Both the position numbers and the translations under genes were made by a program. The notes beneath the pieces are model-generated. The model was given only the letters and a program-made list of their open reading frames with translations, searched no databases and was not told the origin of the DNA. Shown piece after piece: positions 26,580-31,918 of a DNA stretch of 50,609 nucleotides (positions are counted from its first letter, which is position 1; every line of letters starts with the position of its first letter). The stretch comes from an uncultured Fibrobacterota bacterium (GTDB lineage: Bacteria > Fibrobacterota > Chitinivibrionia > Chitinivibrionales > FEN-1185): positions 1 to 50,609 of the forward strand of contig CAVWBU010000020.1 in the NCBI GenBank assembly GCA_963753345.1, in the 5' to 3' direction.

Positions 26580-28094
26580 TTATTGTGTTATTATCCCCCT
26601 CATCTTCACCACCTCAAAGTCGCTTCCCACTATCTGTTTGAGCGTATTCAGCTCGTCGTCGTCAAACCTGCTGTCCGGCGCGCCCGACACATACCAGTTG
26701 GAGCCGTTGTCGGCCATGATCATGCCGTAGGTCTTGAGCGCCTTGAGGATCACCTGCATGTTTGCCGAATAGCCGGAAATGTCAACGCTCGCCTTGAGCC
26801 TTACACGCATGCCCATGGGCGGAAGTGTATCTGCGGTCTTGCTGCTCGCGTAGTGCGTGGCGGGCGGGATGTAGGCGTGCCGCGAATTAACAACCGTGAA
26901 CCGCACCGCGTGCAGTATCTGCTTCTGTTCCACCACCTCGTCATAGCGCACCAGACCGGGGAATATGGGCAGCCCGGCAGCATCGGCCGAGGTCCAGCCG
27001 GCCTGACGCAGCGAGTCGGAATCCAGTTTGAAAATCGCACCCGACCCCGCCGTCCAACCGGTTCCAGGCGGATATGCGGCATACAGCTCGTACAGGATCC
27101 AGTTGTCTCTGTCAACCATGAGAATGTGCCGGTCGCCGGTCGAGCTTGGTCCGCCCTCAATCGGCGCGTTCGCGGGAATGGGATACGGCCCCGGATCGCT
27201 TTCGTCGGCATAGTCGAACGTCACGTTGACTTTGGGCGTTTTCGCGGTCACCACAACGTACGGAATGCCGCAAACGCCGCCGTTGTACTGGCCGCAGAAG
27301 TCCGGGTGCAGCGGAACATTAAGCCCTATGCCTGCGATAATCTTGTCGGAAAGCGGGTCCACCGTGTCCTTGTCGATCGGTGTGTTCCACGGATTGTCGT
27401 CAGGAAACGGCCGCACGCCGTGGAAACTGGCGCCGATACCCGTGTCGATGAGCGAAGTTATGATGAGGTTGATGTTTGACTGGGCGTATGAATTTATTCC
27501 CTGTGTCAATGGTTTGTATCTCACGACATTTACTTTAAGGGAATCGGCAGCGGCCGACAATTTCATAAGAGAAGTCGCTGGCGGTGTGGCAGATGCCGAT
27601 GAAACCGCAGGGCCACAATGGAGATCAATGGTTCGAAACTGGTACGTCATGGAACCGATATTAATCCTCAACAGTTTTAATCCGGCTGAATTTTCTTTTT
27701 GAATATCTATTGAATGACTGCCAGCACCGAATTCCCGGTCAACAACCGTATTCAACAATACTCCTCTGCTGTTGAAAACCGAGAGTACTACGCGTGTCGC
27801 CTTTTCAAGCACGAGTTTCACAGCGCCGTTGCTTATCATTATCATGTTTGACGAAGCACGGCCGATCACGGACACTACTCCTGCATTTCCCGTAATTGAA
27901 AATGCGCCGTTCGCATCGGTGGTGTCCTTCAGACCGCCGTTCTGCAACGCCACCACCGCGCCCTTGACCGCCACCTGGTCGGTGTTGAAGACCGTGCCGG
28001 AAAGGGAAACGGACTGGGCGCGGGACGTAGAGAATACCATGAGAAGGAAAATTGCGGCAGTTACGAAACAAGGTCTGTAATATTCTGTTTTCAT
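26580..28094 (-). CDS. Secreted modular protein: carboxypeptidase-regulatory-like domain, FlgD/CTD-like domain, conserved C-terminal domain of unknown function
   Basis: Signal peptide; SLSGTVFN...DTTDANGAFSI; LSVFNSRG...FGAGSHSI; C-terminal RPFPDDNPWN, DESDPGPYPIP, GDRH, WTSADAAGLP, YGMIMADNGS. Confidence 0.7.
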   Translation of the reverse strand: MKTEYYRPCFVTAAIFLLMVFSTSRAQSVSLSGTVFNTDQVAVKGAVVALQNGGLKDTTDANGAFSITGNAGVVSVIGRASSNMIMISNGAVKLVLEKATRVVLSVFNSRGVLLNTVVDREFGAGSHSIDIQKENSAGLKLLRINIGSMTYQFRTIDLHCGPAVSSASATPPATSLMKLSAAADSLKVNVVRYKPLTQGINSYAQSNINLIITSLIDTGIGASFHGVRPFPDDNPWNTPIDKDTVDPLSDKIIAGIGLNVPLHPDFCGQYNGGVCGIPYVVVTAKTPKVNVTFDYADESDPGPYPIPANAPIEGGPSSTGDRHILMVDRDNWILYELYAAYPPGTGWTAGSGAIFKLDSDSLRQAGWTSADAAGLPIFPGLVRYDEVVEQKQILHAVRFTVVNSRHAYIPPATHYASSKTADTLPPMGMRVRLKASVDISGYSANMQVILKALKTYGMIMADNGSNWYVSGAPDSRFDDDELNTLKQIVGSDFEVVKMRGIITQ

Positions 28095-28409: not shown

Positions 28410-29375
28410 TTAAAACGAGGTGAGGATCCTGGCAAGATCGAGCAGTCCCAACCCGCTGGGGTATTTGAGCAGGTACGAGGGCTCTGCGACCGAGGCGTGG
28501 AATTTTTTTCTGAAGTGGTACAGTTTGTGGAGATTGAAGGTGTTGTTCGCAAACCACATTCCAACATTGGCGACAACACGGGACGGACCCGAAAGCGCGC
28601 TCACGTCGAGCTTGGGGGAAATGCCGAAGGTGAGGATACCGCCGCCGTGCCGTTTGAGTTCGTCGACAACGGCCAGGGTGATGAGCTCGATGACGCCGTA
28701 CGGCGCGCCCGGGTCGCGGATGACGTCTTCCAGGAGGAACCCGTCGCGCGCGTAAATGGGAAGGCAGCTGATGAAAGCCACGGGAGTCCCGCCCACCTCG
28801 GCATAGAAATACCGTTTGAGTTCCCGGTGCTCGAACAGACTAAGACTGAGAATGTGCGCCTTGAACCGGTTGGTCTTTTTGAGCCAGCGCACGGATATTT
28901 CCTCGAATTTCTTTTCGAGCGCAGGGTCGGCGCCATGGGCGTGATCGTATTCCTTTACAACCGCTCCTGCCCTCAGCGCGTGATTTCGCGCAAGCCGGAT
29001 CATCTTGTTCTTGTCGCCCCTGGGCGCGTAGGTGGTGGTATCGAAGATGAAATCTTCGCCGATGCGGATGGAACTGAACCCGAGGTCTTCAACGTCGTTC
29101 TTGAATTTTTCGCCGCAGCAGATAAATATGAATTGGTTTCCGTTCTTTTTGCAGAACGCGATGAACTCGCTCACAGAAGCCCGGTAGTCTTTGGGATCGC
29201 ACACCGGCTCGCCGAACACGACGAGCAGCTTGCGGCCGTTGCGATATCCTATGAACCCCTCGCAGGAGGCAAGCGGAAATGACCTGACGTCGTCGTAGAG
29301 CAAAAGTGTCGAAAAAGAGTTGCTTCCGTAATTTTTGACATGGGCGAGCCTGGACGGGAAATCTGGAACAGTCAT
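28410..29375 (-). CDS. Stand-alone aminoacyl-phosphatidylglycerol synthase (MprF C-terminal/DUF2156) aminoacyl-tRNA-dependent transferase domain
   Basis: VVFGEPVC, RIGEDFIFD, AFISCLP, LEDVIRDPGAPYGVIELI, LYHFRKKF...EPSYL; no transmembrane flippase region. Confidence 0.8.
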   Translation of the reverse strand: MTVPDFPSRLAHVKNYGSNSFSTLLLYDDVRSFPLASCEGFIGYRNGRKLLVVFGEPVCDPKDYRASVSEFIAFCKKNGNQFIFICCGEKFKNDVEDLGFSSIRIGEDFIFDTTTYAPRGDKNKMIRLARNHALRAGAVVKEYDHAHGADPALEKKFEEISVRWLKKTNRFKAHILSLSLFEHRELKRYFYAEVGGTPVAFISCLPIYARDGFLLEDVIRDPGAPYGVIELITLAVVDELKRHGGGILTFGISPKLDVSALSGPSRVVANVGMWFANNTFNLHKLYHFRKKFHASVAEPSYLLKYPSGLGLLDLARILTSF

Positions 29376-29478
29376 GCGATGTGGGCTCTTTCGGGCAGAG
29401 GGATTGCACTAAACTGACAGGCATAAAAATAATATAATGGCCTCAGCGGGGTGAAGATTCGTATATTTACTGGTCTTT

Positions 29479-29551
29479 GAGCTGCTAGCTTAAGTGGTAG
29501 AGCACGACATTCTTTCTGTCGGAGATCGGGGTTCGAATCCTTGGCGGCTCA
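29479..29551 (+). tRNA. Atypical tRNA-Lys(CTT)-like gene
   Basis: Full cloverleaf: acceptor GAGCTGC/GCGGCTC, D arm GCTT-AAGTGGTA-GAGC, anticodon stem CGACA/TGTCG with loop TTCTTTC (CTT at 29512-29514), variable loop GAGAT, T arm CGGGG-TTCGAAT-CCTTG, discriminator A; CCA not encoded. Confidence 0.8.
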
Positions 29552-29563
29552 CTTTCCCTCTCC

Positions 29564-30913
29564 TTAAAAGACAAACACCGTGCCCGCGCGCAGCGAAAGC
29601 GCCGCCCCCATGTCCACGGTTCCCGCGGCCCATCCCTTCGTCTTTGCCTCCAGTTCCGTATAGAGGCTCGCAAACCGCGACAGCCTGATATCCAGCCGCT
29701 GCGACATGAGTCCCCCGGCGGCAGCAGCGTTGTCGTAGAAACGCTGATCCGACGGCTGCAACCACAGCGACAGCCGCGGCGACCAGAAGAGCCCCGGCGA
29801 GGCGAACACGACCGGAACATCGACCAGCGAGACGTCGATTCCCGGAAGCGCGAGGCGGCCGTTTGCATACATGTTGACTCCTGCGACTATCCCCGCGCCC
29901 GGCGCGCGCGCCATTCCGTACGCGCCGATCATGTATCCGAACGGCGTTAGGTAGTGCGTGAGGCCGCCGGTAAGCGCGCACTGCCCGCCGCCGAAGGCGC
30001 ATTGCCACGGCTTTACGCCGTACAACTGCGGCCGGATAAAATTGACAAGAGAGAGAGCGGCCTGCAATCGAAGATAGCTCTGCTCCGAGGAGGTCAACTG
30101 CGACCACAGTATATACCGGTTGATTCCCGTGCCGCTCGGATGAATGCCGCGCGCCGCATAGGGTTCGTTTGGCCGGTGAAGATCGTAGGTCCACGCCGAA
30201 AAGTCCCACCCGACAATGTCGCGCTGGTCAATCGTGGTTTCTTTGGCGTTGAATTCGCGGGTTTCCTCGTCGGCGTAGGAGGTGGTATTGAACCAGATGT
30301 AAAACGAAATCGAGAACAACGAATACAGCGCGGACGGTTCGACTAAGCGTGCGCCGTGCATCATGCCGTCCCGCAACAGCGCATCGGTAAGGTCCACCTG
30401 GGCTTCGTACCCGGCTTCTTCACACCGCACCAGTTCCTCCGGATGTTCTGCCTTGAGATTTTCCAGGGCCTCGTCGGAAACGTGGTACACCGAAACCGCG
30501 GTTGCGTCGAGGTTGAAATCGTACACCCCGTCGTAGGACGAAATGCCCCGGCCCGACAGCACTGCGCGGTGGTATTCCTCGTGCATCCACGTTACGCCGA
30601 AGGGAACGTAGACGTTCAGGAGAAGCGCGCACGCCTCGAGGCCGAGGGTCGCGCCGGTCTGCACAAACGGATTGCGGATCCCTGAGGTGCCGAGAAGAAT
30701 CGAGGAATTCATCAGCTCGCAGAATGACGCGGTAATCGATCTGGTCTGGGACATTGCGGGCCAATAGGCGCCGCGCCCGGCATTGGCCGGCATGTCGGCG
30801 AGCGCGAGGTCGAGCCTGAACATACCATCGGCGACCGAATCGGTCTGGGCCGCCCCGACTGTTGCAGCGGACAACACCACCGCGCACCAGACGGCTGCCG
30901 TTGCACGCGTCAC
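29564..30913 (-). CDS. Exported hypothetical protein, probably outer-membrane, with an HEExH motif
   Basis: Signal peptide; WMHEEYHR; amphipathic beta-rich C-terminal part ending in Phe. Confidence 0.6.
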   Translation of the reverse strand: MTRATAAVWCAVVLSAATVGAAQTDSVADGMFRLDLALADMPANAGRGAYWPAMSQTRSITASFCELMNSSILLGTSGIRNPFVQTGATLGLEACALLLNVYVPFGVTWMHEEYHRAVLSGRGISSYDGVYDFNLDATAVSVYHVSDEALENLKAEHPEELVRCEEAGYEAQVDLTDALLRDGMMHGARLVEPSALYSLFSISFYIWFNTTSYADEETREFNAKETTIDQRDIVGWDFSAWTYDLHRPNEPYAARGIHPSGTGINRYILWSQLTSSEQSYLRLQAALSLVNFIRPQLYGVKPWQCAFGGGQCALTGGLTHYLTPFGYMIGAYGMARAPGAGIVAGVNMYANGRLALPGIDVSLVDVPVVFASPGLFWSPRLSLWLQPSDQRFYDNAAAAGGLMSQRLDIRLSRFASLYTELEAKTKGWAAGTVDMGAALSLRAGTVFVF

Positions 30914-31918
30914 TCAGCGTCCTCCGCTTGCAGGAACGGTTTCGGAAACGATGCTCTCGCGCAGATCGTAGAGCAGCCACTTCCCGGCGAGAATGCTGTC
31001 GCGGTGAGCGCGGACAAGGTCGAAAAAACGTTTGATGCCGTAGGGCTCGTTGCCGTTGGCATGGACGAGCACAATGGATCCGTTGTGAGGTTGTTGATTT
31101 TTGGCAAGCCAGGCGTCGCTTCCGACCGGGATCAGGCCGTAGGCCGTGATTCTGGCAAACAGCAGGCTGTCCGAAACAAGGCCTGGAAACCGGAAGAACA
31201 CCGACGGCGTTATCCCGTATTCAAGCATTTTCCGCTCGGTCTTGAGCACTTCCACGTCGAGATTGGTCCCCTTGATCTCCAGAAAGTTCTTTGCGATGGG
31301 CATACTGTCGGACCAACGGTGATTGTACGAGTGGTTGATCCACGTGATGTTCAATTCGCCGCTGTCCTGGAGAGCCTTGAGCCAGCGCAGGTCTTCCTGA
31401 TGATCGTACATCCAGTTCCCGGTGACCGCCAGCGCTATGGGGACCGGCTTTTCTTCAGGCAGGAAACGCTCCAGAAGATCGGTGAAGAACTTTCTCGCAA
31501 GCGGAAGCCTGGACGGGCACAGGTCTGCGGTGAGGTCGATGCCGTTTTCGCGCGACAGGCCGTGCACGATCCCGGCATCCAGTTCAAGCGCGGACCGTCT
31601 TTCCGCACTGTCAAGCGCGAGCACGTACGGCGTGAGCCCGAACCGTTTTCGCACGGCGGAAAGCGTCGCGGGTTCGCAGGTCACGCTGTCGCGGTCCACG
31701 ACGCGCGTCGCAAGGGTGCTCATGTCGACCGTCAGGAGAAACCGTCTCCCGCCCCGCGCAAAGGAGCGCATTGCCATGCAGGGAGCGCTGTCGCCGTGAA
31801 CCGTGCACGAGCCGAAGAAAACCGCGTACTTTTCCAACGGCTGAGCGGATGGATTGGTAGACGCAAGCATCAGGAGCGCGGGGATTGTTGCGGTAATTGC
31901 ACGGTGTATTCTTGTCAT
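30914..31918 (-). CDS. Exported polysaccharide deacetylase (NodB)-like protein
   Basis: DLTADLCP, WINHSYNH, FFRFPG and IVLVHANG align with CE4 motifs 1, 2, 3 and 5; signal peptide. Confidence 0.7.
   Translation of the reverse strand: MTRIHRAITATIPALLMLASTNPSAQPLEKYAVFFGSCTVHGDSAPCMAMRSFARGGRRFLLTVDMSTLATRVVDRDSVTCEPATLSAVRKRFGLTPYVLALDSAERRSALELDAGIVHGLSRENGIDLTADLCPSRLPLARKFFTDLLERFLPEEKPVPIALAVTGNWMYDHQEDLRWLKALQDSGELNITWINHSYNHRWSDSMPIAKNFLEIKGTNLDVEVLKTERKMLEYGITPSVFFRFPGLVSDSLLFARITAYGLIPVGSDAWLAKNQQPHNGSIVLVHANGNEPYGIKRFFDLVRAHRDSILAGKWLLYDLRESIVSETVPASGGR

Follow-up and report, generated by a model that had tools for sequence, protein, structure and literature searches.

Why would a bacterium that encodes canonical lysine tRNAs keep a further, structurally intact tRNA with a lysine anticodon and an abnormal anticodon loop directly beside the gene for a putative aminoacyl-tRNA-dependent transferase? 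This question is raised by a 50,609-nt stretch of DNA (the window; contig CAVWBU010000020.1 of assembly GCA_963753345.1) from an uncultured Fibrobacterota bacterium, in which a 73-nt tRNA gene with anticodon CUU, anticodon loop UUCUUUC and discriminator A73 (29479-29551, plus strand; ARAGORN, Rfam RF00005) stands head to head with the gene for a stand-alone DUF2156 protein of 321 aa (28410-29375, minus strand; PF09924, AlphaFold2, Foldseek) that comprises only the C-terminal catalytic domain of MprF. The spacer between the DUF2156 ATG (29375) and the first base of the tRNA (29479) measures 103 bp. Judging from the sequence comparisons described below, we propose, with a probability of roughly one half, that this atypical tRNA is a dedicated, poorly decoding lysyl donor for the DUF2156 transferase. 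The source assembly (G000; 4.5 Mb, 55 contigs, 94% complete) was compared with five other genomes of the same genus (G001, G002, G003, G004 and G005), with a phylum set of 296 genomes and with loci from a metagenome scan, and the carriers of the atypical tRNA proved to be a small group of uncultured peat and sediment bacteria.

An intact cloverleaf with an atypical anticodon loop

ARAGORN reports one tRNA in the whole window, a tRNA-Lys(ctt) at 29479-29552 (+), and Rfam RF00005 covers 29479-29551 from end to end (model positions 1-71 of 71), scoring 48.8 bits where the gathering score is 29 (E 1.7e-7), which bears out the cloverleaf described in the initial annotation of this locus. Within the genome this score ranks 48th among 53 tRNA matches. 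Read directly from the sequence, the molecule folds into stems of 7, 4, 5 and 5 bp over its 73 nt and keeps all the tertiary nucleotides, namely U8, A14, G18 G19, U33, U54 U55 C56, A58 and the Levitt pair A15:U48, with UUCGAAU as the T loop; the folding-energy z-score of the single sequence, -1.8, is unremarkable. The T stem is built from C49-G65, G50-U64, G51-U63, G52-C62 and G53-C61, and thus contains two G-U pairs in tandem. The discriminator A73 is followed by CTT, meaning that CCA is not encoded in the window copy, a common situation here in that about 20 of the 52 ARAGORN tRNAs of the genome encode it. The hallmarks, CUU and A73, U37/C38, the tandem G-U pairs and the missing CCA were all found as the initial annotation had given them. 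Among nine copies of the atypical tRNA, two (L014 and L004, the latter being the copy in G002) do have CCA after A73, so this trait is variable within the lineage.

What sets the molecule apart is its anticodon loop, which reads U32 U33 C34 U35 U36 U37 C38. A purine at position 37 is a general rule for tRNAs (PMC5699536), and 50 of the 51 ARAGORN tRNAs of this genome have A or G there, the atypical tRNA being the only one with a pyrimidine; all 8 aligned copies carry U37 in place of the purine that marks elongators. Furthermore, tRNAs that read ANN codons carry N6-threonylcarbamoyladenosine at this position (t6A37), and the modifying enzyme is reported to require 36-UAA-38 strictly (PMC13276492), where the atypical tRNA has U36-U37-C38. 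An ordinary, inefficient extra tRNA-Lys(CUU) isodecoder, reading AAG and neighbouring DUF2156 through a shared small insertion, would be expected to look as regular as this tRNA does in its fully canonical cloverleaf and tertiary nucleotides, its U33, its 7-nt loop and its CUU anticodon, but not to be the sole pyrimidine-37 tRNA of its genome or to be incapable of receiving t6A37, and we regard this explanation as unlikely.

A supernumerary gene with the identity set of class II lysyl-tRNA synthetase

The initial annotation had left to be established whether a separate canonical tRNA-Lys exists, and both isoacceptors are present in the same genome: a tRNA-Lys(CUU) at C40:87974, which encodes CCA and has the loop CUCUUAA, and a tRNA-Lys(UUU) at C26:71435-71506. 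Both recur at 99-100% identity in G002 and G004 and at 92-94% in G005 and G003, where the G003 tRNA-Lys(CUU) copy is cut by a contig end; that is, canonical tRNA-Lys genes occur in genus members with and without the atypical tRNA. The atypical tRNA is an extra gene beside isoacceptors that cover the same codons, and the presence of a canonical tRNA-Lys(CUU) in every genome examined speaks against a mere isodecoder. Over 74 nt it is identical to tRNA-Ala of its own genome at 52 positions, to tRNA-Lys(UUU) at 50 and to tRNA-Lys(CUU) at 49; with just 49-50 identities, an origin as a recent duplicate of a resident lysine tRNA was rejected. In these comparisons the body of the molecule gives no measurable signal of isotype.

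Two side observations concern the canonical genes. In G002, perfect half-copies of the canonical tRNA-Lys(CUU) lie at C28:247107-247148 and C28:273939-273981 (positions 32-73 and 1-43), at distances of about 10 and 17 kb from the complete gene (C28:256765), and resemble attachment-site duplications by elements integrated there. The canonical tRNA-Lys(UUU) of G000 has a G2-U71 pair, which according to a review is essential for class I lysyl-tRNA synthetase (LysRS) and an antideterminant for the class II LysRS of E. coli; in this genus only class II was found.

Each of the five genus genomes examined contains a single class II LysRS, and in none of the five was a class I enzyme found. This differs from the situation of Bacillus cereus tRNA-Other, a tRNA-like RNA with a non-Lys anticodon that is lysylated outside the normal decoding set and needs a class I/class II LysRS pair. 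In G000 the LysRS gene, with an adjacent tRNA-Glu(UUC), appears three times (C19, where LysRS occupies 164298-165749, C38 and C42) with near-identical scores, probably on redundant strain-variant contigs and not as paralogues. A synthetase specific to the gene block around the tRNA was considered and rejected, there being one class II LysRS per genome and no synthetase in the block; for the same reason, charging by the housekeeping LysRS is the simplest inference. Class II LysRS identity resides in the three anticodon bases and A73 (PMC9976931), and the atypical tRNA has the complete set, C34 U35 U36 and A73. Because this set is kept, the sequence makes lysylation by the single housekeeping LysRS the most likely route of charging.

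The tRNA is conserved beside one group of DUF2156 genes

Three of the five other genus members, G001, G002 and G004, have a close DUF2156 orthologue (77-93% identical), and exactly these three have the atypical tRNA, at 97-99% identity and adjoining the DUF2156 gene, while G003 and G005 are without both. In the phylum set, a pattern made from the loop and T arm (TTCTTTCTGTCGGAGATCGGGG...) confined this type of tRNA to G000, G001, G002 and G004, which among the 296 genomes are exactly the holders of a close DUF2156 orthologue. A metagenome scan, with a 21-sequence alignment as query, added six loci with DUF2156 at least 60% identical; the divergent tRNA is present in each of the five whose sequence reaches the upstream side (L013-L017; 73-93%), and the sixth locus ends within the DUF2156 gene. 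Counting all testable loci with a DUF2156 identity of 73% or more (G000, G001, G002, G004 and L013-L017), the tRNA stands divergently upstream in 9 of 9, and the recurrence of the same tRNA beside the same gene in 8 loci besides the window argues that the feature is more than chance.

Only 5 of the 73 positions (16, 20, 22, 57 and 59) vary among 8 aligned copies. All 21 stem pairs are kept in the 7 distinct sequences, 20 of them without any variation and the last with G or A at position 22 opposite U13; U37, C38, both G-U pairs and G18 G19 are invariant. The flanks diverge immediately on both sides of the tRNA, and the DUF2156 proteins are 73-93% identical. U37, which the initial annotation had marked for confirmation in the reads, is upheld by contigs from two independent runs of different studies, which are identical inside the tRNA and differ just outside it; the search for sequencing runs that hold the locus listed no RNA run. 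Since U37, C38 and the G-U pairs are unchanged in 7 sequences, we consider them selected features and not signs of decay, and by this comparison the atypical tRNA is a selected gene under strong purifying selection that extends to U37/C38 and the tandem G-U pairs. The invariance of these oddities also tells against an ordinary isodecoder, an explanation to which the linkage within one syntenic lineage and the distant DUF2156 homologues without a tRNA are in turn congenial.

The gain and loss of the genes can be read from G005, in which the orthologue of a 334-aa neighbour (C46:49337-50278) is directly followed by that of a 504-aa neighbour (C46:50553-52016), and the spacer holds a terminator-like hairpin and no tRNA, tRNA fragment, integrase or direct repeat. 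This clean gap argues that the gene for a 449-aa neighbour, the tRNA and the DUF2156 gene form a single unit of gain or loss. A decaying tRNA pseudogene, or the integration-site remnant of a mobile element, might also form part of such a present-or-absent block between conserved neighbours, and the half-copies of tRNA-Lys(CUU) elsewhere in G002 lend the idea a precedent. Nevertheless, we hold it to be highly improbable, given that all 21 pairs are intact in every copy with variation in five loop or wobble positions only, that the empty site in G005 has none of the traces of integration listed above, and that the tRNA is so far in sequence from the resident lysine tRNAs; the random decay that the initial annotation had contemplated is contradicted by these counts. 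As for a viral origin, a 17-nt anticodon-arm pattern matched 10 viral contigs, none of which had a tRNA, and these are chance matches; no DUF2156 relatives were found in viral contigs.

Two conserved blocks upstream of the tRNA

An AT-rich block at 29427-29442 (+), AAATAATATAAT[G/A]GCC, lies 52 to 37 nt before the 5′ end of the tRNA with 15 of its 16 positions invariant, and a second block, GTATATT at 29461-29467 (+), lies 18 to 12 nt before it and is wholly invariant, in each case across 8 of 8 loci. Both stand at a fixed distance to the tRNA in all eight, in the midst of intergenic sequence that is unalignable and of varying length, while the distance to the DUF2156 start lies anywhere between 99 and 266 bp owing to insertions nearer the enzyme gene. 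The fixed spacing to the tRNA and the variable spacing to DUF2156 argue for a dedicated tRNA promoter, and the co-regulation of the two genes that the initial annotation had suggested is not supported. By position and conservation, the two blocks are candidate promoter elements of the tRNA, the first a candidate promoter or operator and the second a candidate -10-like element. A scan of the 103-bp spacer with a sigma-70 consensus returned no match.

These blocks would equally suit a tRNA-like RNA with a regulatory or decoy function, one that gauges lysine supply or LysRS activity, for example, or that binds the transferase and controls it, and that is not a donor. Such an RNA would also make sense of a conserved odd anticodon loop and of the antisense placement, the tRNA being the sole plus-strand gene amid four protein genes (334 aa, 449 aa, DUF2156 and 504 aa), all on the minus strand. 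However, an acceptor stem and A73 that are intact and invariant, in a canonical L-shape, point to aminoacylation and go beyond what a decoy needs, and the window contains no T-box or other Rfam element; we think a regulatory role improbable.

A stand-alone transferase of the MprF type

PF09924 (LPG_synthase_C) aligns with the DUF2156 protein from position 4 to position 297 of the 298 in the profile, at 130.6 bits (cut-off 27.5; E 8.2e-38), and the divergent arrangement, at 103 bp, of the tRNA and a gene with the DUF2156/MprF domain is as the initial annotation had given it. The NCBIfam model for bifunctional MprF reaches 94.5 bits against a cut-off of 600 and aligns at model positions 525-812 only; the N-terminal membrane (flippase) domain is absent from the 321-aa protein. 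Likewise, with 34.5 bits for the LysX model (cut-off 742) and an open frame that extends just 11 codons upstream, there is no synthetase fusion. An AlphaFold2 model (pLDDT 89.3) has a tandem GNAT fold that Foldseek superposes over its full length on 4v36, 5vrv, 7duw, 6lv0 and 4v35 (E 1e-21 to 1e-18, TM 0.78-0.83), with FemX and other aminoacyl-tRNA-dependent enzymes next at about 1e-10. On this model, the protein has the fold of an aminoacyl-tRNA transferase. A separate PF03706 protein was considered as a partner that would supply the missing flippase; every one of the five genus genomes tested has between 4 and 6 such proteins, irrespective of the block, so they are uninformative and the candidate was set aside.

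In a sequence-profile ranking of solved structures, the aspartyl-sterol synthase ErdS (1.3e-25) comes narrowly before the lysyl-phosphatidylglycerol synthase LysPGS (3e-23) and ahead of its alanyl counterpart AlaPGS (3e-17), a closeness from which it follows that the family fixes neither amino acid nor acceptor. A lipid acceptor is taken as the default by analogy. DUF2156 enzymes with Lys, Ala, Asp and Gly donors are known, and together with the ErdS ranking and with a tRNA body that is not nearer the lysine tRNAs than other isotypes, they would accommodate a donor tRNA whose amino acid is not lysine or whose charging is blind to the anticodon. We judge this distinctly unlikely: C34 U35 U36 and A73 make up the full known identity set of class II LysRS, direct reading of the tRNA finds neither the G3-U70 pair of AlaRS nor the long variable arm of SerRS and LeuRS, and the block brings no extra synthetase.

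Predicted affinity for EF-Tu

The initial annotation had connected the T-stem pairs with the affinity for elongation factor Tu (EF-Tu), and by published rules the stem calculates as weak. With the T-stem energies in Table 2 of PMC3239215 and a baseline of about -10.1 taken from a row of Table 3, the pairs C49-G65 (0.0), G50-U64 (+1.4) and G51-U63 (+0.8) add up to a calculated +2.2 kcal/mol, where the maximum is +2.5. The resulting value of about -7.9 is weaker by 1.5 kcal/mol than the Lys(CUU) class mean, -9.4; the mean for Lys(UUU) is -9.7, and the same study places its outlier line at 1.3 kcal/mol and proposes that outlier tRNAs with a normal second copy are amino-acid donors outside translation (PMC3239215). 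From its sequence, the atypical tRNA thus calculates as a weak-binding EF-Tu outlier, a shortfall that sits poorly with an ordinary isodecoder.

Applied to the whole genome, the same table gives +0.7 and 0.0 for the canonical lysine tRNAs beside the calculated +2.2 of the atypical one, and among the 49 scorable tRNAs only the two tRNA-Gln(CUG) copies, at +2.3, are weaker. The calculation reproduces the known compensation, with Gly, Asp, Ala and Glu tight and Gln and Tyr weak.

A proposed lysyl donor and the evidence against it

In the mechanism that we propose, the atypical tRNA would be transcribed separately and be functional, and the single housekeeping LysRS would lysylate it via C34 U35 U36 and A73. 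Its U37/C38 loop, unable to receive t6A37 and without a purine-37 stack, would decode poorly, and its T stem, with C49-G65, G50-U64 and G51-U63, would come near the weakest combination for EF-Tu. Because of this odd loop and weak T stem, most of the Lys-tRNA would be kept from the ribosome and remain available to the cytosolic DUF2156 transferase, whose gene lies 103 bp away. The transferase would then pass the aminoacyl group on to a hydroxyl or an amino function of its acceptor, by family analogy most likely a membrane lipid. We infer each of these steps, from transcription, lysylation and exclusion from translation to use by the DUF2156 enzyme and the nature of the acceptor. A stricter version, in which the tRNA never decodes and is a private aminoacyl carrier, recharged by LysRS and barred from EF-Tu and the ribosome by its own sequence, is in our view somewhat less likely than not.

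Several points weigh against a dedicated lysyl donor. The first group concerns the tRNA itself. Its body is no nearer the lysine tRNAs of its genome (49-50/74) than tRNA-Ala (52), so far as the sequence goes the lysine assignment derives solely from the anticodon and A73, and the elbow (G18 G19 and the T loop) is canonical, unlike that of staphylococcal tRNA-Gly. Translating tRNA-Gln and tRNA-Tyr of the same genome have equally weak T stems, which makes the EF-Tu argument depend on the amino acid being lysine and is compatible with an isodecoder that translates. The covariation that the initial annotation had looked to is not present: there is none to test because the stems do not vary, and the alignment adds nothing to the fold of a single sequence.

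The second group concerns the distribution. The carriers are all members of a single narrow lineage in which synteny is conserved, so the linkage of tRNA and DUF2156 counts as a single evolutionary event. The initial annotation's expectation of atypical tRNAs in the neighbourhoods of stand-alone DUF2156 homologues holds for the nine loci at 73% identity or more and fails at the more distant loci examined. The orthologue in G037 (46% identical) has no tRNA in the 875 bp upstream by ARAGORN or a permissive Rfam scan, its DUF2156 gene being preceded by a 170-bp spacer and then a divergent open reading frame, and the loop pattern has no match in the G037 genome; 22 more distant DUF2156 loci of the phylum are without a tRNA within flanks of about 1.5 kb. 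The DUF2156 family clearly works without a private tRNA.

The third group concerns the enzyme, whose best solved sequence match is an aspartyl-sterol synthase, with LysPGS slightly behind, and whose MprF-type relatives are reported to recognise mainly the aminoacyl moiety (PMC4052509). Taken together, the dedicated Lys-donor reading of the initial annotation stands as far as an extra, selected and enzyme-linked tRNA is concerned, and is held back by its confinement to one lineage and by the missing covariation.

Neighbouring genes

Wherever the flank is long enough (6 loci), the 449-aa gene (29564-30913, minus strand) adjoins the tRNA, and the genes for the 334-aa (30914-31918, minus strand) and 504-aa (26580-28094, minus strand) proteins are conserved neighbours of the block. 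All three products are predicted to be secreted. The 334-aa protein is without a family match, and the 504-aa protein has an N-terminal CarboxypepD_reg-like domain and numerous paralogues within the genus, where each genome has 10 to 22 matches.

The 449-aa protein has no Pfam or NCBIfam match and belongs to a family of 36 matches with an invariant W-x-H-E-E-x-H-R motif. Its AlphaFold2 model (pLDDT 90.6) consists of a signal peptide, a helical domain at residues 54-298 that carries the HEExH motif, and a C-terminal outer-membrane beta-barrel; the barrel is porin-like (Z about 8) and the helical part bears a weak resemblance to RseP and SpoIVFB, which are site-2 proteases (Z 5.7-6.3, 18% identity). 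The model suggests that this may be a new outer-membrane metalloenzyme architecture. The protein may be part of the tRNA-transferase system. The family occurs in 19 of the 296 genomes, several of them without a close DUF2156 orthologue, a count that, like the carriers without DUF2156, rests in part on G253, a genome flagged as unpublished; where both families are present they lie on different contigs. At 8 family loci checked outside the genus there was no tRNA, and DUF2156 was not adjacent. A general role of the 449-aa protein as a DUF2156 partner is thus not supported outside the genus.

Elsewhere in G000, two further tRNA calls deserve mention. The ARAGORN tRNA-Asn(att) at C3:16610-16695, with mismatches in its stems and an aberrant T loop, is probably a false positive, and a second tRNA-Ser(cga) at C29:790-872, with 31.7 bits in Rfam, may be another atypical tRNA.

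Relation to known systems

How aminoacyl-tRNA is diverted to MprF-type enzymes in competition with EF-Tu was described as an open question in a 2023 review (PMC9976931). The nearest parallel to the tRNA described here is found in Staphylococcus aureus, in which three non-proteogenic tRNA-Gly species with weak EF-Tu pairs are preferred by FmhB, FemA and FemB (PMC7826273; PMC4052509; PMC9976931). There, as here, the gene is extra to the translating isoacceptors and has T-stem pairs that weaken EF-Tu binding (a prediction in our case), and the tRNAs are charged by the single housekeeping synthetase and are donors for a transferase outside translation, as we propose for the atypical tRNA. The two systems differ in the enzyme family, Fem there and DUF2156 here, and in the amino acid, glycine there and by prediction lysine here. 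In the staphylococcal tRNAs G18 G19 are replaced by pyrimidines, whereas here they are kept and the most striking change is U37/C38; moreover, the tRNA gene here lies directly beside the enzyme gene. Enzyme preference and poor EF-Tu binding were measured in S. aureus and are predicted in our case.

The DUF2156 protein shares its catalytic fold and Pfam family with MprF and the aminoacyl-phosphatidylglycerol synthases (LysPGS 4v36, AlaPGS 4v34/4v35, MprF 7duw), whose donor is aminoacyl-tRNA, but it lacks the membrane flippase domain, and no private tRNA has been described for MprF. A different solution is seen in ErdS, a fungal AspRS-DUF2156 protein (9w9e) that holds its tRNA as a "prosthetic swinging arm", independent of protein synthesis (PMC13219428). 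In ErdS, the best solved sequence match, and in mycobacterial LysX, fusion to a synthetase gives the DUF2156 enzyme its own supply of charged tRNA; these proteins trap an ordinary tRNA by fusion, whereas in the present case the enzyme is unfused, a second LysRS is absent, and the alteration is in the tRNA. The atypical tRNA also resembles the outliers of Schrader and Uhlenbeck 2011 (PMC3239215) in being more than 1.3 kcal/mol weaker than its class mean in the presence of a normal second copy, but those had no assigned partner enzyme, and here there are an adjacent transferase and an abnormal anticodon loop. A literature search, which left most subscription journals and supplements out of reach, found no description of a DUF2156 or MprF gene that has a tRNA gene as its partner.

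The principle of the non-proteogenic tRNA is thus already known, and its extension to a free-standing MprF-type transferase would be new. The routes by which such enzymes are known to obtain their substrate are the common pool or a synthetase fusion (ErdS, LysX) for DUF2156 enzymes and non-proteogenic tRNA-Gly for Fem enzymes. If our proposal is true, an altered tRNA would be a third way for DUF2156 enzymes to secure their substrate, beside synthetase fusion and the common pool, and the locus would be the first case in which an enzyme and its dedicated tRNA share a small gene block whose gain and loss are joint. A 73-nt RNA and a 321-aa soluble enzyme would then provide a compact, testable pair for the study of a tRNA that is charged and yet excluded from translation, and the atypical tRNA may serve as a naturally ribosome-shy scaffold for Lys-tRNA.

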